DNA of 61,835 nt, filler included, from Globobulimina sp. (lineage: Eukaryota), in the NCBI GenBank assembly GCA_003354225.1. It is 14 parts of 14 records of this genome, joined end to end, with 100 filler letters (N's around TTAATTAATTAA, not from the genome) between each part and the next. Parts side by side here need not be neighbours in the genome. Positions count along the whole stretch, not along the records: positions 39,835 to 44,156 come from PIVH01001353.1; 13 more parts are not named here. One strand, written 5' to 3'. Under the pieces are notes generated by a model. The model was not told the origin of the DNA. It saw nothing but the letters and a program-made list of their open reading frames with translations, and made no database searches. The position numbers were made by a program, and so were the translations under genes. Positions 1 through 55,459 of the stretch are shown here, piece by piece (the first letter of the stretch is position 1; every line of letters starts with the position of its first letter).

Positions 1-8
1 TCGAGCCA

Positions 9-3000
9 ATGGATGATCGATCGCAATATATCCACCATACGCGACATTCCATTGCTTCTACGCAATCCCCACAGTCCGGGCTGCATTCGCCAACAAGCAA
101 TTATTCGTCAAATAACTTTGCATTGTCACCCACCAGAACCATTGTTTCTGTCTCCTCCAATAACAACAATACGAATAATAATAAAATAGCAAAGAAGAAT
201 GCAAATACTATCAGTTTATCATCAATGTATAGCTATGATGGCTTAGAAACGGTTTATACGCCGCATGAGCAACATACTGTTATTACTCCGACATCCACCA
301 ACTCAATATTTAATTTCTCAAATAATGCATCAAATTCATTCAATAATAACAATAATAATAATGGCTTTTCCTGGAGTGATTTTGATATATCACAACAATT
401 TATGAAAGCAAAGAATTTTATATCTGCGGAACCGATATTAAATGAATTGGTTTTATCGTTGATTAATTTTGATTGCAATGCTCCAAATATACCGTATTTT
501 AATTGTATTCATTTATATGCGCAATGTTTATATGAAATGAATAAATTTGAAGATGCATTGAAATACTTTAAAATGGCATTGATTTATAATGAGCATCATT
601 GTGATTGCAATTATAAATACGCCAAATTATTAAAGAAGTTTGAACAATTTGATGAGTCGCAAATATATTTTGAGAAATGTTGCAAACTATCACCATATGA
701 ACCGGATTACTTCTATCAATATGGCTTATTATTGGAGCTAATCAATGAACAAAGCGAAGCCATCAAACAATTCGAGAAAGCATACTATTTAAAACCCGAC
801 ATATTGAAATTCAAAATGAAATTGGACCAAATTAAATTGAAAGAGAAAAATAAAAATATGAGAAAACAGCAAGATAGAATATTAAATGGCGAATGTTACA
901 ATAACGAACAAGCAGACTTCGAAGGAGATATCCAAGACATTGAGGATATGGATGAAGAGAAACAAAATAAAGTCTATCCATGTCAGCCTAACGATGCTGT
1001 TGAGAATGCGGAGGAAAACAAATTAAAAATGGCTCAGAAATGTGTAGCTGAAAAGGATTGGAATGGAGCTAAATTATTATATGCCGAATTAGTAGATTTC
1101 GATGGAAACAATACAGATTTTAACATCCTATATTCGTATGCATCGGTATTGAGACAATGTGGTGCATTTAAGCAATGCGTCGAATATTACGAGTTAGCCA
1201 TTGGCATTAATTCCGAGCATGCTTTGTGTTTCTATGAATATGGCAATGTATTACATCGCGAATTAAATAATATAAACAAAGCCATGTATCAATACGAGAA
1301 ATGTTTGAAATTAACAAATTACAAAATGCATTCCTGTTTATTTGATTATGCCATTGTTTTGCAGCGGAAAAAAAAGACCAAAGAAGCCGCCAAATATTTT
1401 AAAAAAGCAATCATCGAATTAACGCAATTAAGCAAAACCATTGAAAGCGAGAAAAGTCGCAAAACATTGATAAACACATTGGCGAATTATCACAATCGGT
1501 ATGGTTTATTATTACGCAATGAGGCAAAGTATTTACTGGCAAACGAAGAATTTAAATTGGCCATTTCCTACAATTCGCACAATGGCAATTCCAATCGCGT
1601 CGATTTCGAAGCCAACCACGCGTACTCCTTATTTTTAAATGAGCGATACAAGGAATCCGAAGTGGGCATATTGTCCTGTTTGGAGCGCGACGACGAGAAC
1701 GCGTTCGTCAATCATGTGTACGCATTGTTGTTACGCAGAACCAACAGATTTGCCGAAGCCTTCCAATATCACCACAAAGCCATCCAATTGAACCCACACA
1801 ACAAGGAATTCAAGAAACGGTACGACGAATTCCTGGAATATTCCAACCGATTCAGCCACGACGAAAAGCAGAAAATGAAGCGCAAATTCGACAGAGCGCA
1901 GCAAATGATCAAAACCAAACATTTCGAGAAAGCCAGAGTTTTACTGAAACAGCTATCGAATGTGAACCCGTATAATATTGTGTATGTGTTCAAATTTGCG
2001 TTTGTGTTACACCGATTGAAGCAGTATAAGGAAGCGGAGAGATATTACAAATTGGCGTTGAATGTGGAAGGCGATCATAGTATTTGCCATTTTGATTACG
2101 GATTAATGTTATCCAAACTGCGGAGATTGGAGGAGGCGCAGTATCATTACAAGAGGTGTTTGCATATGAACCCTCAGGATTGGATTTGTCACATTAATTA
2201 TGCGCGACTGTTGGAGAAGAAGTGCAATTTTAAAGACGCGGCGTTTCATTTGGAGAAAGCGCTGCAAATTAATCCAAATGATGCGGAAGCACACCAATGT
2301 TATTCGCAAGTGGTTAAAAAATTGAAACAGCAGAAACATTGGACCAAAAAAGAGCAATCCACGGCCAATAATAATCATAATTGCAGCGCGAAGGCAATAT
2401 CGCCGTGGCGGAGAGTTACGACGCCGTCTCCGAAGAAGTTAACTGACACTATGTCGGAGCAACACGTTCAAGAGAAAAAAAAGGAGCAGCCCGCCATGGC
2501 GAAACCTGCCAAACCTACAAAGGCACCAATACGTAATCGACCCATTTACAATTTAAGCAATGCATTGAATTTGTATGAAAATGGACAATTTATCAAATCG
2601 AGGCAAATATTTATTAAATTGGTTGAGACGGATCGTACCAATTATCAATATGTGATTGGATATGCGCGCTGTCTATATTTTGGATTGCAAGAATTGAATA
2701 ATGCGGAACAACAATATCGAAATGCATTAAATATCAATCATTCCGACGATGAGTTACATTATGAATTAGGTCTGGTGTTATTTGATTTGAATCGCTTGAC
2801 CGAATCTGGCGATTTTATCGTGAATGCGTTGGAAATAAATGCGGATAATATCGAATATAATTATCAGTATGCGCTGATTTTGCAGGAATTGAATGATTTT
2901 CGCAGTGCGTTATCATATTATCATAAATGCGCAGAGATGCAATCGGATTATAAAGATATCCAAACGCGGATTGATGCGTTGTCCGCTTATGACGATGCCT

Positions 3001-4328
3001 TTGATGATTATAATAATTTTATTGAACCAGAAAGTGATTCACAGTCCGCATTGATGGATGTGAATGATATTATGGTCGAGATTAAAAGTTTAATATTTTT
3101 GACAGAATATCGCACTGCAAAAGAATTGTTAGCGCCATTCATGGCCGACGCTAAATTAACAATTGATAACTTTGAATATATTATAAAATACGCAGAGATT
3201 TTACTGAAATTGAATGAATTTAATGAATCTGAAGAATATTATAAAATCGCATTGAAATTGGAACCGGAGGAACCAACATGTTATTATAATTTGGGCATAA
3301 TTTGCGAGCAACGGCACAGAAACGAAGAAGCTTTGATGTATTTAGAAAAGGCAGCGGCATTACAACCAAATAATAACCAATTTCGAAATAAATATAATGA
3401 ATCCCTCGTAAAATTACAACAACAACAACACGCAAATTCCAATATAGCGTTTGGATCATTATTTGCTGGTTCTTCATTTGATATATTTCATACCGATCAA
3501 CCACAACCACCGCAACCACACACATCTACATCTGCGCCATCCTCAGGACCACCAATACAGACACAACCAGAAGGAGAGGGAGAAGAAAATCTAACAACGA
3601 ATAGCAAGCCAATTGAATATGATTATAATTCATATTTATTTGCTCCATCACCTTCGCCGGTATTTTATAGCAATGATCAACAGCAACAACAGCAAACACA
3701 GCAGCAACAAGCACAATATTATTACCATCATCATCACCATCACTCTCATTCTCATCACCATGAGTATGGCATTACCGATGAGGAGAAAATAAATGATATA
3801 TTTGCGACTCTGCCCTCCATTACAGACGACATCGAGACAGAGACAGTGCAGAGCAGCATCAATGAGGAGAAGACCGTGGAAGAGACTCAGCATCAGTCAT
3901 ATTGTGAGAAACAGCGGCGTTTAGAATTTCGATTATTTCTACAAGAAAAGGTGCAATTTAATACTAAGCATTTTGATCAATACTTTCGTCGCTTTGTCAA
4001 TGAAGGATTAGCCGATATTCGTATGGTGCCATATTTGGACGAATTAACTCTAACAAACATTGGAATGATTAAACCGCACCAAAAGTTGATGTTAAATAAA
4101 ATTGCACATTTTCAACAAGACATGAAATTATTTGCAAATATATTTAAAATCGTTGGTATTCCGACCAGATATTTTAATAATTTTGGCGATTATGGAATAT
4201 GTACAATACAATCATTTTGTAATAATTTCAAAAATAAATCAGATTTAAGATATATTATGGATAACAACGATGTAATTATTGAACAGTTATGGCAGCAAAT
4301 ACAAATTGCAAAACATAATGAATATAAT
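9..4328 (+). CDS. TPR-repeat protein with C-terminal SAM-like domain(s); runs to the contig end
   Basis: Many 34-aa TPR units (e.g. CHFDYGLMLSKLRRLEEAQYHYKRCLHMNP). C-terminal FDQYFRRFVNEGLADIRMVPYLDELTLTNIGMIKPHQKLMLNKI is SAM-like. Asn/Gln/His low-complexity tracts. Confidence 0.85.
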
Positions 4329-15243: not shown

Positions 15244-15284
15244 ATATTTTACTTACTTAATTAAAAAACCTGAGTTGTATAATA

Positions 15285-16958
15285 ATGCCAAAGAAACACA
15301 AGAAGAAATCCAAAAAGAAAAAGGAATCCAAGAACAAATGGTACGAATGGTGGATAATGCCATCATTTGCAATTGCAATCATTTCCATTTTATTATATTT
15401 CACAGTGTCTCATCAAACCGCACTATCCGCCATAATATTGGGTCAGCCTCGAACTCCTGCTTCAAAGCAACAAATTGATGACTTAACCACAGCCATCACA
15501 GCGTTGCAAGCTGCTAAGATCAACGAATTGACATCAAAATATGAATTTAATTTCGACTCACCGCCGCATGCTCCAATGGCAATGACAATGAATGATTTCT
15601 TCACAAATTGGTCAGCCAATATCCACGACAATAAATATTCGCAGCGGCTGGACATTGTCCGCCTATTAATGAATAGCACAAAGATTGAAAGTTTGTGTTT
15701 TTGCCATCAATTGGCAGAGTACCGAATCATTGATGCTTTGCAATTGGTTCTCGCGGAAATGTCTGACGAAGCCATCCAACAATGTTTTATGCAAAGCGGT
15801 GCCAACAACAACAATATATTCCATCGAGTGAGCAAATCCAAAGCAGCTTCCTTTGCGAGACAATTATTAAAATTGGGAGCGAATAACCAAAAATTAAGCA
15901 GTTCCTTCAAAAGGTTGCATATTTTCATGACAAAGCAATCCAAGGCACAGCGCAGGAAACGCATTGTATCGCAGACAAACATCAAAAAGTGGACCTCGCA
16001 GATTGATATCGAATTAATTGTCGAATATGCATTGAAGGCAAATATTAATGAACGCTTTTTTTTTGCTACAAACACTGAAAATTACACAGGATTTGATTAT
16101 TGGATTTTGAACCATGGACAGGATGAAATGAATGCATTTTTGCAACGTTATCAACATTTATTTGCTCAATATTTGAAATATAATCAACACAATAAAAGCG
16201 TGCAAAATAAGGTGCAATTTGTGAATATGGAACATGTAAATCATTGTAATCTGTCTGCAGACACATTGGGTTTCTGTGGGAGCAATGCATGTTTTCCACC
16301 GATTATCACTGACTGGAGCGACTTTGCTGTGTATTGGGAACAACAAAGACCAGTAATTATCAGAGCTGGTGATCCGAAACGAAATAAAAACATTAATTTG
16401 ACATCTTTGATGGAGCAGTTTGGCGATTTATCAATGATGGTTTCCGAGATTCCCTATGCTCCATTATTTGGTATGAAAGCGTGGTCGATTCCGATCAAGG
16501 AATATATGAATGTCATATTGAATGGCGAGCATAGGAGCAATATGTATGCGTTTGATAAAGCTTTGATAGCTTCGAATGAAGAGTTGCGAGCATATTTCAA
16601 CTATTCTGTGCAGTTTATGCATGATAAAAGTGTGCAATACGTAGAAACCTATCAGTTGGCTTTGGGGCCATCGACATCCGGCTCTCCTCCTCATTGGCAT
16701 CCACCTGCATTCAATCAAGTATTTATTGGCAGGAAGTTGTGGTGGATGTTTAGTCCAAGAAATTCGTTTTTCAGTTCTCTGAATGTTATGGAATGGCTCA
16801 ATGAAGAATATAAAAAGAAAAAGAAGTATCGCGGTGCCAAACGCAGACATTATTGTTTTGTTCAACAAGTTGGCGATGTCGTGTTTGTGCCGAATGAATG
16901 GTCGCACGCTACCAATAACTTACAAACCACTCTTGCGATTGCTATTGAATTCAGTTAA
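15285..16958 (+). CDS. JmjC-domain protein, JMJD8-like, with N-terminal membrane anchor
   Basis: LGPSTSGSPPHWHPPAFNQVFIGRKLWWMF and QQVGDVVFVPNEWSHATNNL. The HxH metal motif matches JMJD8. Confidence 0.82.
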   Translation: MPKKHKKKSKKKKESKNKWYEWWIMPSFAIAIISILLYFTVSHQTALSAIILGQPRTPASKQQIDDLTTAITALQAAKINELTSKYEFNFDSPPHAPMAMTMNDFFTNWSANIHDNKYSQRLDIVRLLMNSTKIESLCFCHQLAEYRIIDALQLVLAEMSDEAIQQCFMQSGANNNNIFHRVSKSKAASFARQLLKLGANNQKLSSSFKRLHIFMTKQSKAQRRKRIVSQTNIKKWTSQIDIELIVEYALKANINERFFFATNTENYTGFDYWILNHGQDEMNAFLQRYQHLFAQYLKYNQHNKSVQNKVQFVNMEHVNHCNLSADTLGFCGSNACFPPIITDWSDFAVYWEQQRPVIIRAGDPKRNKNINLTSLMEQFGDLSMMVSEIPYAPLFGMKAWSIPIKEYMNVILNGEHRSNMYAFDKALIASNEELRAYFNYSVQFMHDKSVQYVETYQLALGPSTSGSPPHWHPPAFNQVFIGRKLWWMFSPRNSFFSSLNVMEWLNEEYKKKKKYRGAKRRHYCFVQQVGDVVFVPNEWSHATNNLQTTLAIAIEFS

Positions 16959-39651: not shown

Positions 39652-39836
39652 AAACTTCTGAACGTGTTTGTTTGTATACTGTGTATACTAAATTATCTAT
39701 TTTAAGTTTTACGCTCGAAAATCCGCATTCTAATNNNNNNNNNNNNNNNNNNNNNNNNNNNNNNNNNNNNNNNNNNNNTTAATTAATTAANNNNNNNNNN
39801 NNNNNNNNNNNNNNNNNNNNNNNNNNNNNNNNNNAA

Positions 39837-41510
39837 TTGATTTATATATTGGATATTTGCAAATATTGTTATATAATGTATTTAATATGGGGTCCAGGGT
39901 TCAAATTGGCCAAAACAGATTTGGCGACTGCTTTTAGGCAGTTATATTTGGCAATAACTGAACCGGAAAATTGTGTATATAAATTTGATAATAAATTAAT
40001 TGCAGATTTTTATGATTTTTGGGGAACCAGATCTGGTTCAAAACATACCCAAGATGTCGGGCAATTAATTTGTAGATATTTTAATATAAAATTAAATGGA
40101 TTAGAATTGTTGGAAGATATAAATGAATGTATTGAAAAAAGGAATGTTTTATTCTTTAATTATAAGTTTAATAAAGGAAGAAATAAAGAAATAAATAAAG
40201 AAATAAAGGAAGAGAGTTTAAATTTTATTTATGACAATAAAGTTTTATTTAAATGGAATAGTATTTGTGTAAAAAGATGGTTGGTTGAAAATAAAATGAA
40301 TAAATTATTACCTTTTGTGAATAGTCTATTATTTGATGGAATACATTTATTATCATTTAATATACATAGAGCAGGAGATATATTATCAAATAATGAATTG
40401 TGTTTATTTAAGGAAGCAAATTTCTTTATTTTATTAATAAAATTAAAAATTGAATGTAAACAATTATTAAAAGGAATAGTTAATAATTATGTTGATGATT
40501 ATATGCTATTTCTCCCTCCATCTCAAGTTGTGGCAGATAAGATATTCAATGATTTCTGCGATTTTATCAAAAAAGCAGGTTTTATTGAAAAGGAGAAAAA
40601 GAGGGAGGGTCCAGGAGATTTTTTAGATTTAATTGGTTATGATATAGATACGAATGAAATGTTGGTACAATTGAAGGAGATAAAAATAAGAAAAGTTGAA
40701 GAGTTAATAAATGAGTTATTAATACATCAGGTGGTTGACTTAGAGACATATGAATCAATTATTGGCAAATTACAGGACTTTTCGTGCCTAAAATGGCCGG
40801 GAAAGGCCTTTTTGAAAAGATTGAGAGATAAATTGTATAAATATATTGAGTTATATGGGAGAAAGAATGTACTCATTATATTGGAGAGATGGGAGTTATT
40901 AGATTTTTTATGGTGGAAGAAATATATAAGAATAATAAACAAAGCATCCATTTTCGACATATGTGACCCGTTATATCCTGAAGATGAGATACATTTTGAT
41001 GCAGCGACCAATGGCTGTCGTGAGTTAGGTTGGTGTCCGGCAGTCTGTTGTTGGTATAAAGGTAATTGGTTTGCAATTCCATTACCAATGGAATATACAA
41101 ATATGTATAGATCGTTGAGAACTGAGTATGTTAAGGAATTCGCGATCGCACATTTCGAAATGTTGGCAATCATCATAGGATTGTATACATTCAGACATTT
41201 AATCAAATCGCATACAAAAATATTGTTAAAAACTGACAATAAGCACGTTGAAGCGGTTATAATTAATAAGAATTCAGACGACGAATTCTTACAAGATGGA
41301 GTTCGTTGGTTATGTATGTTTGCTGTGGAGCAGTCAGTAAATTTGTACATTGATTTTATTAATTCAAAAGCAAATAAAATCCCTGATTTAGCGTCGAGAT
41401 TCGACATAAAAACATTATTAAAAGTGGCAAGGAAGAAATGTAGGAGAAATGGATGGGAATTGACCGATTTCTCAAAAAATTGTGATATTCCTAACATACA
41501 TGAATGGTGA
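39837..41510 (+). CDS. DIRS reverse transcriptase-RNase H with a SAM-like insertion between RT motifs B' and C
   Basis: KTDLATAFRQL, FWGTRSGS, NYVDDY, KKREGP and LIGYDIDT (RT). HFDAA, HFEMLAI, KTDN and NKIPDLASR (DIRS RNase H). Confidence 0.88.
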   Translation: MIYILDICKYCYIMYLIWGPGFKLAKTDLATAFRQLYLAITEPENCVYKFDNKLIADFYDFWGTRSGSKHTQDVGQLICRYFNIKLNGLELLEDINECIEKRNVLFFNYKFNKGRNKEINKEIKEESLNFIYDNKVLFKWNSICVKRWLVENKMNKLLPFVNSLLFDGIHLLSFNIHRAGDILSNNELCLFKEANFFILLIKLKIECKQLLKGIVNNYVDDYMLFLPPSQVVADKIFNDFCDFIKKAGFIEKEKKREGPGDFLDLIGYDIDTNEMLVQLKEIKIRKVEELINELLIHQVVDLETYESIIGKLQDFSCLKWPGKAFLKRLRDKLYKYIELYGRKNVLIILERWELLDFLWWKKYIRIINKASIFDICDPLYPEDEIHFDAATNGCRELGWCPAVCCWYKGNWFAIPLPMEYTNMYRSLRTEYVKEFAIAHFEMLAIIIGLYTFRHLIKSHTKILLKTDNKHVEAVIINKNSDDEFLQDGVRWLCMFAVEQSVNLYIDFINSKANKIPDLASRFDIKTLLKVARKKCRRNGWELTDFSKNCDIPNIHEW

Positions 41511-42658
41511 CATAGTTTTATCGCGTTTTGAGTTGTCATTTGTGGCAATATTTGCAATTACCATTCAATATTGCATTAATATCCATTTATTTACAATAAA
41601 TATATCAATTCGTAATATGTTATTTTATTTTTGTTGTTTTGTTAATACATTAATATGTTAATAATAGATATGGTTATAATAAATGAATTGTATTAATATA
41701 TATATTGATTTTTAGCATTGGTTTGTTTGTAAATGGTGGACTTTGAGTTTTTAATCGACGTTGTTTGTGATAGCAAAGAACGGATTGACTTAATTAATGA
41801 ATAAAATCTGTGTAAATGTGATAGTATATTATGAATGAATGAGTTTTTAAATAATTGCATTTTGTGTATAAATAATTTGTTTACTTTTTGAAAAATTCAC
41901 ATCGTTTTGTCGATATTGGCATTGCTTGTTTTTTGATAAATATTGTTCAAAATGAATATGTGATATCAGATTTGATGAGTAATGGGAGAAAATGCTGGGA
42001 TTTACGAATAAATTAAGTCATTGAACGTATTGTTCATTTTCATACAAAGACGTTCGTCCTTTGTCATTCGTGTGAAATATGCATCAGATTATGTCGAATT
42101 ATCTGACATTTGGGGTTGATGTTAGTTTCGCAGGCGATTATTATATGGAATACCATGAGAATGTATAGCTGTTGTTGATATATGTAATATTGACACATTA
42201 TCTTTGTTTTGATGGTTTAATTACAGAGATAGTTGTTTACCACATGGGATACCATGGAAACGTTTATCTGTCATTTACAATTAATATATGCATGTTTGAT
42301 GAATAAAAATGTGTTTATTAATGAATTTCAAATACAATATGATTAGTCAGATAATATGGAGATATTTCCTGTTATGATTATAACAGAGTGACTATGTATG
42401 ACTAAGAGATGACTATAAGTGATATTGCAACCATTATAGATATAGGTAATATTGCTGTGACGTACGGTGTCATGGAGTTACATTTTTATAAGGGGCAGGT
42501 TTCACTTTTGAGTTTAAAGTACAAAATAAAAAAACTTTGTGTTTGGTTTGTTAGGTTTGCAAAGTTTGTATTTGTATAAATAATATACAGTAAGAGGCAA
42601 ACATTTTAATCACCCGGTTTGGTCAAAAGTAAGTCCGATTTATAAAGAATTGTTATAT

Positions 42659-43933
42659 ATGGCATTAAATGGTGGGGTGAAAGTAACATCGGAGTCGACG
42701 TATATGACGAATTTCCTATTTTATTGGAAGACAATGAGAAAGTTAGGATTATCAGATGAAGAGGTCTGGACTTTTCCAACTCCGGATGCATATTTGCAGC
42801 TATATACCATACATTGTTGTATGGTGCAAGAAAAGGTAAACTGTTGGAAGACGATGAGATTGAAATATCGATCGATTGACTTTGTGGCACAATTATGCGG
42901 AGAATTTCAGTCATGGTCAGATAATCCATCATTATTTGCATTAACAAAATATGTTAAAAAGACCAATCCGGGAAAAGGTTCTGATACTTTACCCGTGACA
43001 ATAGATATTTTGTTGCAGATAGTAAAATTTATTCTGATGTGTAAAGTTTATAATGGTTTGATATTGACGGATTATGAAAAGAAATTAAAAACTGATTGGT
43101 TAACGTTCGCGAAAATATGGAATGACACCAAGAGATTATTTTGGTACATGTTCGCGATGTCCCTTTTATTTGTAGGAATTTTAGGTTTAAGGGGGGCAGA
43201 GTGCTATGAGAATAATAAAAAAGAATATGAGGGTTACGGTATTTATTTATCGGACTTAGACTTTTTTTGGAGAAATAATGGAAGGAATTCCATATATAAA
43301 AGCAATGGTTATTCTCTTGCATTTGATAAATTACATCATCTTCGAATAAGATTAAGAAATTCCAAGGGACAGCAAAAAGGGAAGGATGTGATGTTAAGAA
43401 TTGGCAGAACCAATAATAAGATTGAGCCGGTTTTAATATTTTATCATATTTATCAAATACAGAAAAGAAATTTAAAAAAGATACATAAGAAAAGTTTAAG
43501 AAATTATTACTTTTTCCAACCAATTAAAAGAAGCTTTAAATTAACAACGATTAAAAAATATTGGAAGGAGATTATTAATGAAATGGGTTTTTGGGAGCCA
43601 AAAAGGTATCGATTTCATGGTTTAAGAAAAGGTTTTGCGACGACGCTACAACAGAAAGATGTGCCAATGAGTTTAATTGCATATGCAGGAAGATGGAAAT
43701 TAACTGCAGCAATATATAGATATTTGATACATTCACAAAGAGATTTGTTGTGTTTGGTGAATATTTTGGTTTATGGAAAGAATAAAAAGTTATTTGCCTT
43801 AGATATGGATGCAGCAGAATGCAATTTGGTGAGGGAATATCCGAATAATAAAGATAAATTTTCCATGGATTTTATTAATAAATATCAAGAAAGCTTATGT
43901 GAATATGATATTGATTTGAGTGGGGATAATTAA
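42659..43933 (+). CDS. Tyrosine recombinase of the DIRS element
   Basis: Catalytic residues in GLRGAE (R), NSKG (K), FHGLRKG (HxxR), AGRWK (W) and IYRY (Y). Confidence 0.9.
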   Translation: MALNGGVKVTSESTYMTNFLFYWKTMRKLGLSDEEVWTFPTPDAYLQLYTIHCCMVQEKVNCWKTMRLKYRSIDFVAQLCGEFQSWSDNPSLFALTKYVKKTNPGKGSDTLPVTIDILLQIVKFILMCKVYNGLILTDYEKKLKTDWLTFAKIWNDTKRLFWYMFAMSLLFVGILGLRGAECYENNKKEYEGYGIYLSDLDFFWRNNGRNSIYKSNGYSLAFDKLHHLRIRLRNSKGQQKGKDVMLRIGRTNNKIEPVLIFYHIYQIQKRNLKKIHKKSLRNYYFFQPIKRSFKLTTIKKYWKEIINEMGFWEPKRYRFHGLRKGFATTLQQKDVPMSLIAYAGRWKLTAAIYRYLIHSQRDLLCLVNILVYGKNKKLFALDMDAAECNLVREYPNNKDKFSMDFINKYQESLCEYDIDLSGDN

Positions 43934-44256
43934 TATATAGATATTTTCAGTTTTATTGTTATACGATGTGGAGTTAATGATATATGTTTAGTATTAATTT
44001 GTATATATTATAATATGTTTTGATTATAAACGAAATGGAGATTGGTATAGGTTTGGTATGGTTTGGTATAAATTTGTTGTTATTGTTAATATGTATTATG
44101 GTATATAAATAATTAAGTTTAAATTAATAGTTTATTTTATCCACATCGAATAATTANNNNNNNNNNNNNNNNNNNNNNNNNNNNNNNNNNNNNNNNNNNN
44201 TTAATTAATTAANNNNNNNNNNNNNNNNNNNNNNNNNNNNNNNNNNNNNNNNNNNN

Positions 44257-46095: not shown

Positions 46096-47784
46096 TCAAT
46101 ATTCCTGCATTATCTTTTCAAAATATTGATCAAATTCAACCGCGTGATTATGATATGGATTTTCTTTCGGATTAAACAATTTGCAGTTTGTAATAATTAA
46201 TTTAAAATCACTCACAAACTGCGTTATCGATTTATATTCATATTTATTCAATTTCTTCTGGATCTGACTCAAATCCATTGGTCTTTTGATCACATTGTAA
46301 TAATTACCAGCTTGCACAGCATCGACCGGCTTATTAAATACGCCCACTTTGCTGTGGTTATGTAATTGTTTCAATATCCCAGATATCCTCGCCGTGACTT
46401 CAACAATTTCGCCGGGCTGACTCGTCGCAAACAGCTTCGTTTTAGTTTTGGTTTTCTGAGCTGGCACCCCTGGGATATCAATAATATTTATATTGTTGAC
46501 ATAGCGAAACTCGTTCAAACCTTTCCTTTTCACCACAGAATTGCTGATATCGCCAATTTTATTCACCAGCTCGCGTCTGTTGGCAATCAGATGTTCATTC
46601 AACTTGCAATAATTGACATGTTTTATAATGCGCGAATGCATTAACTTTGCTCCGTTGTATATCTTTATATATTTTTGTTGAATGATCTCATCAAAGTCAA
46701 TATTTTTACTGCCATATAACCGGTCAATTTTGTCATCAATTTTGCACCGTTTTGCCACCAAACATTTATCCTCAGATTGGTCCAAAGGGATTCGTTCAAA
46801 GCCTTGCTTTGCAAAGTAATCAATGGCATTGTTATCGGCAAAGGTGACAATGTGATAAATCCCCATTCTTTTCAGCGTCTCTTTCAAGTGATTCATTAAA
46901 CGCGTTCCAAAGCCTTTGATCTGATCCGAAGGCGAAATGGCCAAAAAAACAACTTCGGCAAAGTTGCGTTCAGGAAAGGGACGAAAACAAACACCGCCAA
47001 AAACTTGCTTGTCCATCAAAGCTGTCATAGAACGGTGCTTTTTGTCAAATAATATCCGAGTTATGTATGGAGTGGGCATTTGAGGCAAACATTCGTGGAA
47101 TATCTCCTTTAAATCAATCAGTTTTATCCATGCTGCTTCAGAGCTGTCATTGTAAATCAATTTGAATTTCAATGAGTGGCTTTCTTCCAATTTGCGAGGA
47201 GCATCGTCTCTGTTTTTGTTATGTATTGTTGTTTGTGTGCAGTGCAAGGATATTTTGCATATTTGCCAGTACCTCAAATAATGCTTTCTTGTATATGGCC
47301 CAAAGTCAGATTCAGTCAATTTTGGCCGTTTGCTGTTAGTGTGTCCAGATTGTGGTAACTTTCGTTTTTTGTTTGTTTGCTTTTGTTTGGATGCATTTTG
47401 TTTGGATTTGAGTGGATTTATTTTTCTATTAATTTGGGTTTGCAATAATTGAAAAAATCGATGGATTAATGGATGGCATTCATGGTTGAAATCGAAATGA
47501 GTGATTATGCCGCGTTCCACAGATGTTATTATTTTGGAGAATTCAGTGATGGACATGGTCAATGAACGTGGTAAGGATTGGATTTCTTGCAATTGGCTGT
47601 TGTTTTTGTTTTTATTTATTTTGTAGTTGGAGTCAATTGTTTGTAAGGTTTGGTGGTATATTCGAGCATGAAAATTGATTAAATGAAAGTTTTTGTTTGT
47701 ATTGGATGCGGCACATAATCTCTTTTCATGTTTACGAATAAATTCGGCTAAAAATAGTGATATAGTTGGTACGCTACAAGACAT
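46096..47784 (-). CDS. GCN5: Histone acetyltransferase GCN5/PCAF (GNAT plus bromodomain); probable in-frame intron 47210-47272
   Basis: LPQMPTPYITRILFD, GGVCFRPF, FAEVVFLAI, QIKGFGTRLMNHLK and TFADNNAIDYFAKQGF. Bromodomain YYNVIKRPMDL...NCKLFN. Confidence 0.93.
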   Translation of the reverse strand: MSCSVPTISLFLAEFIRKHEKRLCAASNTNKNFHLINFHARIYHQTLQTIDSNYKINKNKNNSQLQEIQSLPRSLTMSITEFSKIITSVERGIITHFDFNHECHPLIHRFFQLLQTQINRKINPLKSKQNASKQKQTNKKRKLPQSGHTNSKRPKLTESDFGPYTRKHYLRYWQICKISLHCTQTTIHNKNRDDAPRKLEESHSLKFKLIYNDSSEAAWIKLIDLKEIFHECLPQMPTPYITRILFDKKHRSMTALMDKQVFGGVCFRPFPERNFAEVVFLAISPSDQIKGFGTRLMNHLKETLKRMGIYHIVTFADNNAIDYFAKQGFERIPLDQSEDKCLVAKRCKIDDKIDRLYGSKNIDFDEIIQQKYIKIYNGAKLMHSRIIKHVNYCKLNEHLIANRRELVNKIGDISNSVVKRKGLNEFRYVNNINIIDIPGVPAQKTKTKTKLFATSQPGEIVEVTARISGILKQLHNHSKVGVFNKPVDAVQAGNYYNVIKRPMDLSQIQKKLNKYEYKSITQFVSDFKLIITNCKLFNPKENPYHNHAVEFDQYFEKIMQEY

Positions 47785-47944
47785 TGTCGGTTTACTTTTA
47801 TTGGTGTTTTTGGGAATACAATGTTTTTGTGTTAACTTTTAACTTTAAACAGAGAAAACAGTAATATGTACAAAGGACGGTATGAATGGAGATTATTAAA
47901 GACAATAAAACAGATAATGTGTTCATTAGATTGGTGTATTGATG

Positions 47945-53257: not shown

Positions 53258-55459
53258 ATGCAAAAAGCCCTGAAAGTTTTTCTAGTTTCTAGTTTCTGCA
53301 ATATATCAAACGTCTGTAGCACTGCACTCATGCAACAACAAAATGACAAAATACAACAGAAAACATGTACACTGTTGTATTTAATTACAATCCAATTATG
53401 CGCATCTCAAACGAGTGTCCCGTTCACTGGTTTCACCGCTGGTTCACCATTGATGCCAGATCCCAGGGCATTGCTACTTAGTGGTTATCAAGCATCAGAA
53501 AATAGAATCTGGCTTATCGGCGGGGGATCCGCCGGTAACGAATTCAAAAAATGGCATTATGATATCGACACCAATATATTCACAGATCTCGGCAATATAT
53601 CCATAATTGCGGGCGTTTTAGACTCTCAATGTTCCTTCCAATGGGCTGAGAATCTTATAACATTTGCAAATGGAGGACTATTACGAGATTTTTCAATGGT
53701 TACTGGACAATTATCTCCATGGACTGGGACATTGCCATATTATCGAGAAGCGCCATGCGTTGCTAGTAATTTGTTTCATCGCTTTATATTTGTAACCGGC
53801 GGGATTCTCATCGACGGGCAAAGTCAATCAGAAAGTTCACGTATTCAAATCTACGATGTCACTACGGATGACTGGATCATATTAGATCCGCCGGGCTCGC
53901 CATATATGGTCACTCCCCGCGGAAAGCATGCTTGTGTGTTATACAATGCGTTTCTATATGTTTTCGGCGGGGTGAACGTCGGTGCGGTCGTAGCTTCTAA
54001 CGAGAAACTAGATGTTTCAGACCCCACTGATAACAATTTTGGCAATAAAGATTGGGACAACACAATATCTTATCTTGCTGATAACAATTTGTATTTTCAG
54101 CGTGCAGTAGTTGACAATACGAATAATTTAATTTATTTAGTTGGCGGCAGGGACGACAGTTACGGTGGCGGATATTCTATAAATATTCAGATTTACGATC
54201 CAGTCATGGATACAATCACATTACTTTCAGCACCAACGCAACGGCTAAATGTAGGCAGATCCTCGCCAGCGGTCATTTTAGTCAATCATAGATTGTATGT
54301 GTTTGGTGGAGCTGGGCCGACAGATACGTGGGAATATTCCAATAGTTTGACGTTTGCACCGACTGCAGCACCCACCCCAGCTCCCACCATGTATCCCACA
54401 ATGAGTCCTACATTGAGTCCAACCGCCTCTCCTACGTCGGATCCTTCATCGAGTCCAACATTGGACCCAACCAATGATCCAACAACAGATCCAACAGCCG
54501 ACCCGACTGAAGATCCTACATTGGACCCAACCAACGATCCAAGCTTTATGCCAACGAATGACCCAACGTTTTCGCCCACATTTGACCCAACATTCATACC
54601 AACATTGATGCCAACTTCTGATCCAACAGCTGATCCAACAAAAGACCCAACCTTTGATCCAACGTTTGACCCAACAAATGACCCCACAACAGATCCAACG
54701 TTTGAGCCAACCGTCGAGCCAACGTGGAATCCAACATCTGAGCCAACAACGCCTACATTTCGACCAAGTGCAGCTCCAACCACTGCACCAACGTGGATGC
54801 CGTCATTCGCTCCGTCAAAAGCTCCAACACCGCACCCGATCATTGAGATAATACCGACAGTCAAACCATTGGCAAATCCATCCGTGCCATCAATATCGAG
54901 CACAGAACGAATGGCAACAGCTGAAAGCAATGGAAATGCACAGAATCCGCAGATTAACCTCAATACTTTGGACAGGTTGCCACTTAAAACGTATATACTG
55001 ATCGGATCTATTATAGTTTGCTTGATCGGCTGTTGTTGTTTATTGATATTGCTGCTTAAGACGAAAAGTAGGAAAGGAAGGAAGAGGAAATATCTAGCTT
55101 CTTATAAAAAAAAAGTGAATAAATCTGTACATGTGACTGTCACAGAAATGATCAAAAAGAAATCGGAACCCATTCGAATCACAATGGAGACATGCACACC
55201 GATGAAGCATGTGGCCAGTACGTCATCCATGGATTGCATTATGGAGAACAAAACTACAATGGGAGCGGACATGGGAATGCGAATAGTTCCTGTCGATGAT
55301 GAAGGAACCACGGAGGAGGAGGACGACTCAGATGACGATGATATGTATGGGAAAGGAACCGATGGGAATACTAATAGGGGTACGGGAGCAGGGACCGCTG
55401 GAGAACCCTTTGATGGAAATGTACATACATCGGATGTGGTCACCATCGGAAGAATATGA
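53258..55459 (+). CDS. Kelch-repeat ectodomain, PT-repeat stalk and TM helix (type I membrane protein)
   Basis: Repeated WLIGG, FVTGG, YVFGG and YLVGG kelch motifs, PTxDPT repeats and TM ILIGSIIVCLIGCCCLLILLL. Confidence 0.85.
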   Translation: MQKALKVFLVSSFCNISNVCSTALMQQQNDKIQQKTCTLLYLITIQLCASQTSVPFTGFTAGSPLMPDPRALLLSGYQASENRIWLIGGGSAGNEFKKWHYDIDTNIFTDLGNISIIAGVLDSQCSFQWAENLITFANGGLLRDFSMVTGQLSPWTGTLPYYREAPCVASNLFHRFIFVTGGILIDGQSQSESSRIQIYDVTTDDWIILDPPGSPYMVTPRGKHACVLYNAFLYVFGGVNVGAVVASNEKLDVSDPTDNNFGNKDWDNTISYLADNNLYFQRAVVDNTNNLIYLVGGRDDSYGGGYSINIQIYDPVMDTITLLSAPTQRLNVGRSSPAVILVNHRLYVFGGAGPTDTWEYSNSLTFAPTAAPTPAPTMYPTMSPTLSPTASPTSDPSSSPTLDPTNDPTTDPTADPTEDPTLDPTNDPSFMPTNDPTFSPTFDPTFIPTLMPTSDPTADPTKDPTFDPTFDPTNDPTTDPTFEPTVEPTWNPTSEPTTPTFRPSAAPTTAPTWMPSFAPSKAPTPHPIIEIIPTVKPLANPSVPSISSTERMATAESNGNAQNPQINLNTLDRLPLKTYILIGSIIVCLIGCCCLLILLLKTKSRKGRKRKYLASYKKKVNKSVHVTVTEMIKKKSEPIRITMETCTPMKHVASTSSMDCIMENKTTMGADMGMRIVPVDDEGTTEEEDDSDDDDMYGKGTDGNTNRGTGAGTAGEPFDGNVHTSDVVTIGRI

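Follow-up and report, generated by a model that had tools for sequence, protein, structure and literature searches.

The reverse transcriptase of a Globobulimina retroelement is interrupted in its palm

The window analysed here is a 61,835-nucleotide stretch of DNA from the Globobulimina sp. assembly GCA_003354225.1. One of its contigs, PIVH01001353.1, carries a retroelement in which a frame for reverse transcriptase (RT) and RNase H is followed on the same strand by a frame for a tyrosine recombinase (YR) (Table 1). Between the helix of RT motif B and the YVDD of motif C, within the catalytic palm, lies a long insert with a predicted SAM domain. To our knowledge, the stretch between motif B and YxDD in RTs is normally short and invariant in length. 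The initial annotation had described about 130 residues at this place and recognised a SAM-like pattern in them. We count 135 (residues 83-217, 40083-40487); the peptide quoted from the insert, KWNSICVKRWLVENKMNKLLPFVNSLLFDGIHLLSFNIHRAGDIL, is found as written, and YVDD lies where it had been placed. The long gap stood up to comparison with relatives, but its full extent did not: the final 12 of the 135 residues match insert-less relatives and are native to the RT, which leaves an insert of about 123 aa (residues 83-205, 40083-40451). The motif B glycine is 159 residues away from the second Asp of YVDD in the window protein and 143-175 in 20 complete insert-bearing relatives, compared with 42-43 in five insert-less relatives and the distant protein P0012, 33 in P0091 and 22 in P0089.

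The enzyme around the insert appears to be complete in its catalytic parts. The window protein is 36-50% identical to ten proteins of 544-742 aa. Cut by the start of the contig, it is about 178 residues shorter at its N terminus than full-length relatives of 693-742 aa. In a 12-sequence alignment, D28, F33 and L38 of motif A and Y218, D220 and D221 of motif C are invariant, as are the four acidic residues of RNase H (Table 1). Together with the open frame and the shared motifs kept in the YR, described below, this bears out the annotation's view that the catalytic residues of all three enzymes are intact. The window protein matches Pfam RT_RNaseH below the cut-off (E 6.8e-4, 20.2 bits against 24.8), a family that 10 of the 12 members match, and it has no match to RVT_1. 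A predicted structure of the full-length relative P0002, which is 50% identical to the window protein, has a mean predicted local distance difference test score (pLDDT) of 89.3 and a predicted template-modelling score (pTM) of 0.85, and matches the RTs of cauliflower mosaic virus (CaMV), Ty3, foamy virus, Moloney murine leukaemia virus (MMLV), xenotropic MLV-related virus (XMRV) and human immunodeficiency virus 1 (HIV-1) with E-values of 1e-12 to 1e-9. As judged from this model, the host enzyme is an RT of the long terminal repeat (LTR)-retroelement or retroviral type with RNase H, its catalytic residues intact.

Table 1 Features of the element-bearing contig, in window coordinates
Feature	Position	Strand	Details
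Element-bearing contig	39835..44156	+	4322 bp; linkers 39735-39834 and 44157-44256 on either side
RT/RNase H frame	39837..41510	+	557 aa plus stop; translation open
RT motif A (FKLAKTDLATAFRQL, KTDL)	39900..39944	+	catalytic D28
RT motif B and helix (WGTRSGSKHTQDVGQLICRYF, residues 62-82)	40020..40082	+	placed by alignment
Insert part 1, helical hairpin (residues 83-112)	40083..40172	+	consensus NGxHLLxDINxAIExxNIxYF
Insert part 2, variable K/E/N-rich linker (residues 113-135)	40173..40241	+	length differs among relatives
Insert part 3, predicted SAM domain (about 70 residues, 136-205)	40242..40451	+	invariant W140, W148, G168
Native strand and motif C hairpin	40452..40523	+	YVDD (TAT GTT GAT GAT) at 40488-40499
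RNase H domain	40977..41426	+	D388, E441, D467, D517 invariant in 12-sequence alignment
Spacer without long frame	41511..42583	+	1073 bp; stops throughout all three frames
Tyrosine recombinase frame	42584..43933	+	449 aa stop to stop

The insert has three parts: a helical hairpin, a variable linker and the putative SAM domain. An AlphaFold model of the window segment (175 aa, from a 24-row alignment) has a mean pLDDT of 89.8 and a pTM of 0.80. In this model a helix at residues 8-30 spans most of the motif B stretch and continues into the start of the insert. The hairpin helices follow at model residues 32-42 and 47-59, and the SAM helices at 85-149 (pLDDT 93-98) lead directly into the two strands of the YVDD hairpin (157-161 and 164-168). 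The linker has the lowest confidence, with a pLDDT of 73 here and 57 in the P0002 model, where the rest of the insert has 83-95. Averaged over pairs of 20 relatives, identity falls from 0.31 in the hairpin to 0.10 in the linker and rises again to 0.24 in the SAM part, compared with 0.34-0.43 in the flanking catalytic parts. N5 and N14 of the hairpin are invariant in the insert alignment. Just before YVDD stands LKI, its L and K invariant across ten insert-bearing sequences, and LK is present in the insert-less P0011 too. One 217-aa fragment, P0047, has the SAM part without the preceding hairpin and linker, unlike all other members.

Sequence profiles and a predicted fold identify a SAM domain

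We built a profile (A2) from ten inserts without their RT flanks and searched it against all PDB sequences and 1.84 billion protein representatives. In the PDB, 36 sequences matched at E ≤ 10, six of them at E ≤ 0.01, and 34 of the 36 are SAM or Pointed (PNT) domains by molecule name, the other two being a ribosomal protein and a nucleoside diphosphate kinase. The top matches were liprin-beta-1 (1.5e-6) and the SARM1 SAM domain (1e-4), and further ones included sphingomyelin synthase 1, TIR-1, neurabin, Aveugle, DGK-delta, TEL, Shank, SLP-76, Scm and Sfmbt. The exhaustive search of the 1.84 billion proteins gave 74 matches at E ≤ 1e-3, which a family hidden Markov model divided into 22 insert-bearing RT relatives, two ambiguous short fragments and 50 other proteins. 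Nineteen of these 50 were scanned against Pfam; all but one exceeded the SAM_1 or SAM_2 cut-offs, and many have tandem SAM domains with SH2 or PDZ. The remaining one, P0036, had low-complexity matches only. Chance resemblance to the SAM pattern is ruled out by the profile results. The strongest non-RT matches (P0016, P0017, P0029 and P0032) are proteins of 881-2400 aa with 4-11 tandem SAM domains together with SH2 and PDZ.

The predicted structure points the same way. When the window segment model was compared with the PDB by Foldseek, the ten best matches were all SAM domains (SARM1, TIR-1, Aveugle), with a probability of up to 0.92, and target-normalised template-modelling scores among the best matches were 0.5-0.71 (Aveugle SAM 0.71, Scm SAM 0.61). 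Because sequence profile and fold agree, we take the SAM assignment as established, and part 3 of the insert is very probably a true SAM domain, a compact five-helix bundle. The SAM-like domain that had been proposed inside the palm is thus backed by profile searches and by a confident model whose top matches are SAM domains; the AlphaFold test that had been suggested returned a SAM fold.

The insert is shared among relatives and conserved

The insert occurs in at least 28 distinct proteins from NCBI, ENA, JGI, Logan and EukProt sources and in a metagenome locus, L001; one of these proteins is labelled as coming from the foraminifer Nonionella stella (EukProt). The search for sister elements proposed in the annotation thus showed that the insert is not unique to one decayed copy, and the architecture is indeed unusual, being kept across this set with a motif B-C spacing that is abnormal by comparison with insert-less relatives. 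The nearest insert-less proteins are a group of six, P0011 and P0085-P0089. We built trees with the insert columns removed, using 21 insert-bearing rows and two very long outgroup branches as root. In a quick maximum-likelihood tree, the 21 insert-bearing rows form one clade (SH-aLRT support 97) that is sister to the six insert-less proteins (98).

Several lines of evidence indicate that the insert has been maintained. All 21 insert-bearing rows of the alignment (A5), and L001 as well, carry it in frame, with 17-38% identity to the window insert, and conservation in its SAM part exceeds that in the linker by a factor of 2.4. The protein encoded by L001 is 36% identical to P0002, and synonymous sites between them are saturated. 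In the source sequencing run, 141 contigs align to 39836-44156 at 85-100% identity, 39 of them at 99% or more and 42 at less than 90%; therefore the element belongs to a diverged multi-copy family in that sample. A diverged copy from this run has 54 substitutions and no insertion or deletion over 40244-40614, and no contig in the run joins across the insert. In two other runs, the low-complexity stretch 40170-40208 draws unrelated contigs. Within the window itself, a tblastn search with P0002 found a single copy, namely the element at 39837-41510.

A number of results weigh against reading the insert as a SAM domain that was gained once and has been kept for a function. Searched alone, the window insert has no Pfam family and, by phmmer, no PDB sequence at E ≤ 10, and single relatives reach SAM_3, SAM_PNT or SAM_2 below threshold (E 0.0034-0.18). 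The Foldseek E-values against the PDB are 0.5-2.7, and none of 205 matches reaches E ≤ 0.001. Viral models (BFVD) gave top matches to giant-virus proteins that bear the name SAM domain protein, and here too the E-values were weak, none being at or below 0.001. In a careful maximum-likelihood tree the six insert-less proteins are nested within the insert-bearing rows, at nodes with 18-20% bootstrap support, and although one change is enough in 78% of 200 bootstrap trees, more than one is needed in 22%. The insert (40083-40487) has a GC content of 0.18, well below that of the whole RT frame (0.289) and of the recombinase frame (0.316), and is the most AT-rich coding part of the element, as expected of a less constrained part. 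Finally, the expectation that the loop occupied by the insert would exit the palm away from the template-primer cleft, and that the polymerase would stay working, is drawn by analogy from the geometry of HIV-1 RT.

A tree in which the insert-bearing clade was enforced has a log-likelihood 8.1 above the free careful tree (p-AU 0.766, approximately unbiased test). One gain of the insert would suffice on these trees, with a later loss in the six insert-less proteins possible. Together, the comparisons show that purifying selection has kept the insert since what was probably an ancient single gain. Capture of the SAM domain from a host is plausible, but no donor stands out; against the insert profile, the score of single cellular SAM domains goes no higher than 35 bits.

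These data also bear on the idea that the insert is an intron, a neutral passenger or a sign that the copy is dead. In its favour are the AT content of the insert, the highest in the frame, and the 1073-bp spacer downstream, which has no long frame and shows that this copy is not compact. Against that, the insert is in frame throughout and keeps its SAM core residues at 17-38% identity, which makes splicing-out very unlikely, and neither the higher conservation of the SAM part than of the linker nor a diverged copy with 54 substitutions and no indel fits a stretch free of constraint. We consider this explanation hardly credible.

The element is a tyrosine recombinase retrotransposon with a Ngaro-like gene order

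Downstream of the spacer, the YR frame matches Pfam Phage_integrase with an E-value of 1.2e-6, its 28.8 bits lying just over the cut-off of 27.1. L001, which was found with an 8-row alignment, has the same order, an RT frame with the SAM insert followed by a YR. The two recombinases are 38% identical over 405 aa (E 9e-98) and have in common LRGAE, HGLRKG and an aligned Tyr. L001 is cut at its 5' end, and its GC content is 0.475 compared with 0.288 in the window element. Its RT and YR frames are separated by 127 bp, compared with 1073 bp in the window element. The longer spacer of the window element may represent untranslated sequence, an additional frame that has decayed, or an insertion nested at this place; it has no second copy within the window. 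A related-locus search with P0019 as query found none, and a search for longer fused forms (1275-3640 aa) also found none, which is weak evidence. Elements of the DIRS order typically have a gag-like first frame and are bounded by split direct repeats or by inverted repeats that have a complementary region inside the element. The element contig has no significant repeats and no convincing terminal repeats, and it ends 223 bp past the YR frame.

On its gene content, the contig carries the 3' two thirds of a YR retrotransposon of the DIRS order, Ngaro-like in its gene arrangement. Neither frame has a Pfam methyltransferase domain of the kind that follows RNase H in DIRS1-like and PAT-like elements, and the RT/RNase H frame ends 40 residues past the last RNase H Asp; because of the missing methyltransferase, we place the element by gene order with Ngaro and not with DIRS1 or PAT. 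The DIRS label it had been given holds in the broad sense of the order DIRS (RT/RNase H and YR on one strand) but not in the sense of DIRS1 or PAT.

The window consists of 14 contigs of about 4.3 kb each in descending size, linked via N44-TTAATTAATTAA-N44 (13 linkers, 4329-57516), and adjacency between linker-separated neighbours is meaningless. The dehydrogenase and hydroxylase frames upstream of the element accordingly lie on a separate contig and provide no context. Other contigs have uninterrupted long frames (46099-47838 on the minus strand; 3-4328, 53258-55456 and 15261-16955 on the plus strand), and products among these contigs include a GNAT acetyltransferase with a bromodomain, a 1442-aa TPR protein, a kelch protein with a PT repeat and a JmjC protein. 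These long frames suggest an AT-rich, intron-poor eukaryote. GC content in the window ranges from about 0.26 to 0.41. GC skew is strongly positive on the coding strand of the element at 40001-44000 (0.37 and 0.33 in 2-kb windows), far above the remaining window. Opposite the RNase H part, a 276-codon antisense frame is open (40727-41557, minus strand), which may be a by-product of the skewed composition.

Possible roles of the embedded SAM domain

Most SAM domains mediate homotypic or heterotypic protein contacts through their mid-loop and end-helix surfaces, a property that is not universal in the family, and RNA binding is established for some. The solved SAM domains among the profile matches, including SARM1, liprin, DGK-delta, TEL, Shank, Scm/Ph and Aveugle, are ones that we take to be oligomerising or heterodimerising, and none of the 36 PDB matches is a Smaug or Vts1 entry. 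Since the solved matches are of the former kind and none of the latter, we favour a protein-protein role, in which the insert would be a module that multimerises or tethers the RT. As the whole explanation, we give this an even chance. In HIV-1 RT, the loop after the motif B helix leaves the base of the palm, off the cleft and near the place where the second subunit acts as a prop. The insertion lies in the corresponding loop, which normally connects that helix to the strand with which the YVDD hairpin begins. From there, the SAM domain could join RT molecules to one another, as a dimer or a head-to-tail oligomer, or it could dock the RT on a protein of the replication complex such as the Gag or recombinase of the element or a host SAM protein. 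A complex prediction with two copies of the SAM part scored 0.00; it gives no verdict and counts neither way on binding.

A more specific proposal, which we judge rather improbable, is that the embedded SAM domain makes the RT itself polymerise head to tail or form rings, with the RT as scaffold of the replication complex. If true, this would be a new mode of multimerisation, unlike the subunit dimers of retroviruses and Ty3, and the scaffold might serve the template jumps toward a circular cDNA that is integrated by the recombinase.

The position of the domain also invites a role in binding nucleic acid. In the manner of Smaug and Vts1, the SAM domain could hold the element's own RNA hairpin or the primer beside the palm, and could thereby aid template choice or the template jumps that YR retroelements need under the circular-intermediate model. 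In favour of this, the domain forms part of the polymerase itself, its last helix nearly abuts the YVDD strand, and the consensus has basic residues in or near that helix, the K of LKI being invariant. The invariant LK is, however, also present in insert-less relatives and hence belongs to the RT rather than to the SAM domain; with this and the lack of any Smaug- or Vts1-type entry among the PDB matches, RNA binding seems rather improbable. Nor did an RNA element come to light, although no search was aimed at one.

A partner may not be needed at all if the insert acts as an internal buttress under the palm that stabilises or regulates a monomeric RT. The second subunit of dimeric retroviral RTs props the catalytic subunit in a comparable way. 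The confident placement of the insert in the full-length P0002 model (pTM 0.85) fits a fixed docking, and the hairpin is the best-conserved part of the insert, with its two invariant Asn residues. The variable, low-confidence linker suggests instead a tethered domain that is not rigid, and P0047 has the SAM domain without the hairpin. We regard such a buttress as unlikely.

Returning to a protein-protein role, a special case of it would be docking of the RT or pre-integration complex on a host SAM protein, either for targeting to chromatin, analogous to the chromodomain of chromoviruses, or for blunting a defence. Heterotypic SAM-SAM pairing is common, with liprin, Aveugle/CNK and Scm/Ph among the matches, and the insert profile finds many multi-SAM cell proteins. 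The sources of the insert differ widely in GC content (0.29 compared with 0.475) and include one foraminifer label, so that any such partner must be widely conserved; docking on a host protein is decidedly unlikely in our estimate.

Relation to known systems and implications

The element resembles Ngaro-type and other elements of the DIRS order in having RT/RNase H and then YR on the same strand and, like Ngaro, in lacking a methyltransferase; it differs from them in having a hairpin and a SAM domain between RT motifs B and C. The Ngaro-type gene order is outlined in text passages from PMC3783388 and PMC3266345, and those passages from the two DIRS/Ngaro surveys mention no SAM insert, "sam" matching only ordinary words. 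The insert-less sister group (P0011, P0085-P0089) is 33-37% identical and has the same RT, RNase H, C-terminal tail and LK...NYIDD strand, but has neither SAM domain nor hairpin in its 42-43 residues between motif B and DD (22 in P0089), where insert-bearing proteins have 143-175. With cellular SAM domains (SARM1 SAM1-2, liprin-beta-1, Aveugle, Scm), the insert shares profile similarity, a helical bundle and a W...W...G...L pattern; unlike them, it is nested in a catalytic domain rather than terminal or in tandem, and single members fall below Pfam cut-offs.

Insertions in other RTs include the telomerase insertion in fingers domain (IFD) and extra segments in the RTs of group II introns and long interspersed nuclear elements (LINEs). 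These likewise place extra polypeptide between RT motifs with catalysis intact, but most of them are found in the fingers or between motifs A and B', and none is known to be a copy of an independent, widespread globular domain family. Chromoviruses carry a captured chromodomain of host type. Capture of DNA methyltransferases by retroelements is described in the abstract of PMC5890265. As in those captures, a retroelement protein appears to have taken up a cellular domain, which has then been retained throughout a clade; in contrast to them, where the domains are appended at an end or form separate regions, the SAM domain here interrupts the polymerase palm. No SAM domain in the RT of a YR retroelement was found in full-text literature searches, with subscription papers, Repbase and supplements outside the scope of the search; the papers listed included one on the Aspergillus pangenome and one on LINE-1/HELZ2, and titles and abstracts of the foraminiferal YR-retrotransposon literature include none on a SAM-bearing RT. 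As far as we found, a widespread interaction domain nested in the palm and kept over a deep clade is apparently undescribed.

Domain capture by retroelements and lineage-specific insertions in RTs are already known. The SAM insert adds a further kind of captured host-type domain, one that lies within the catalytic domain rather than at the end of the protein. RTs rank with the most intensively studied enzymes, and the insert marks the site between motifs B and C as a permissive spot in their palm, with possible use in RT engineering. For the family itself, an RT that bears a SAM domain offers a way into the replication complex of YR retrotransposons, which is poorly understood.

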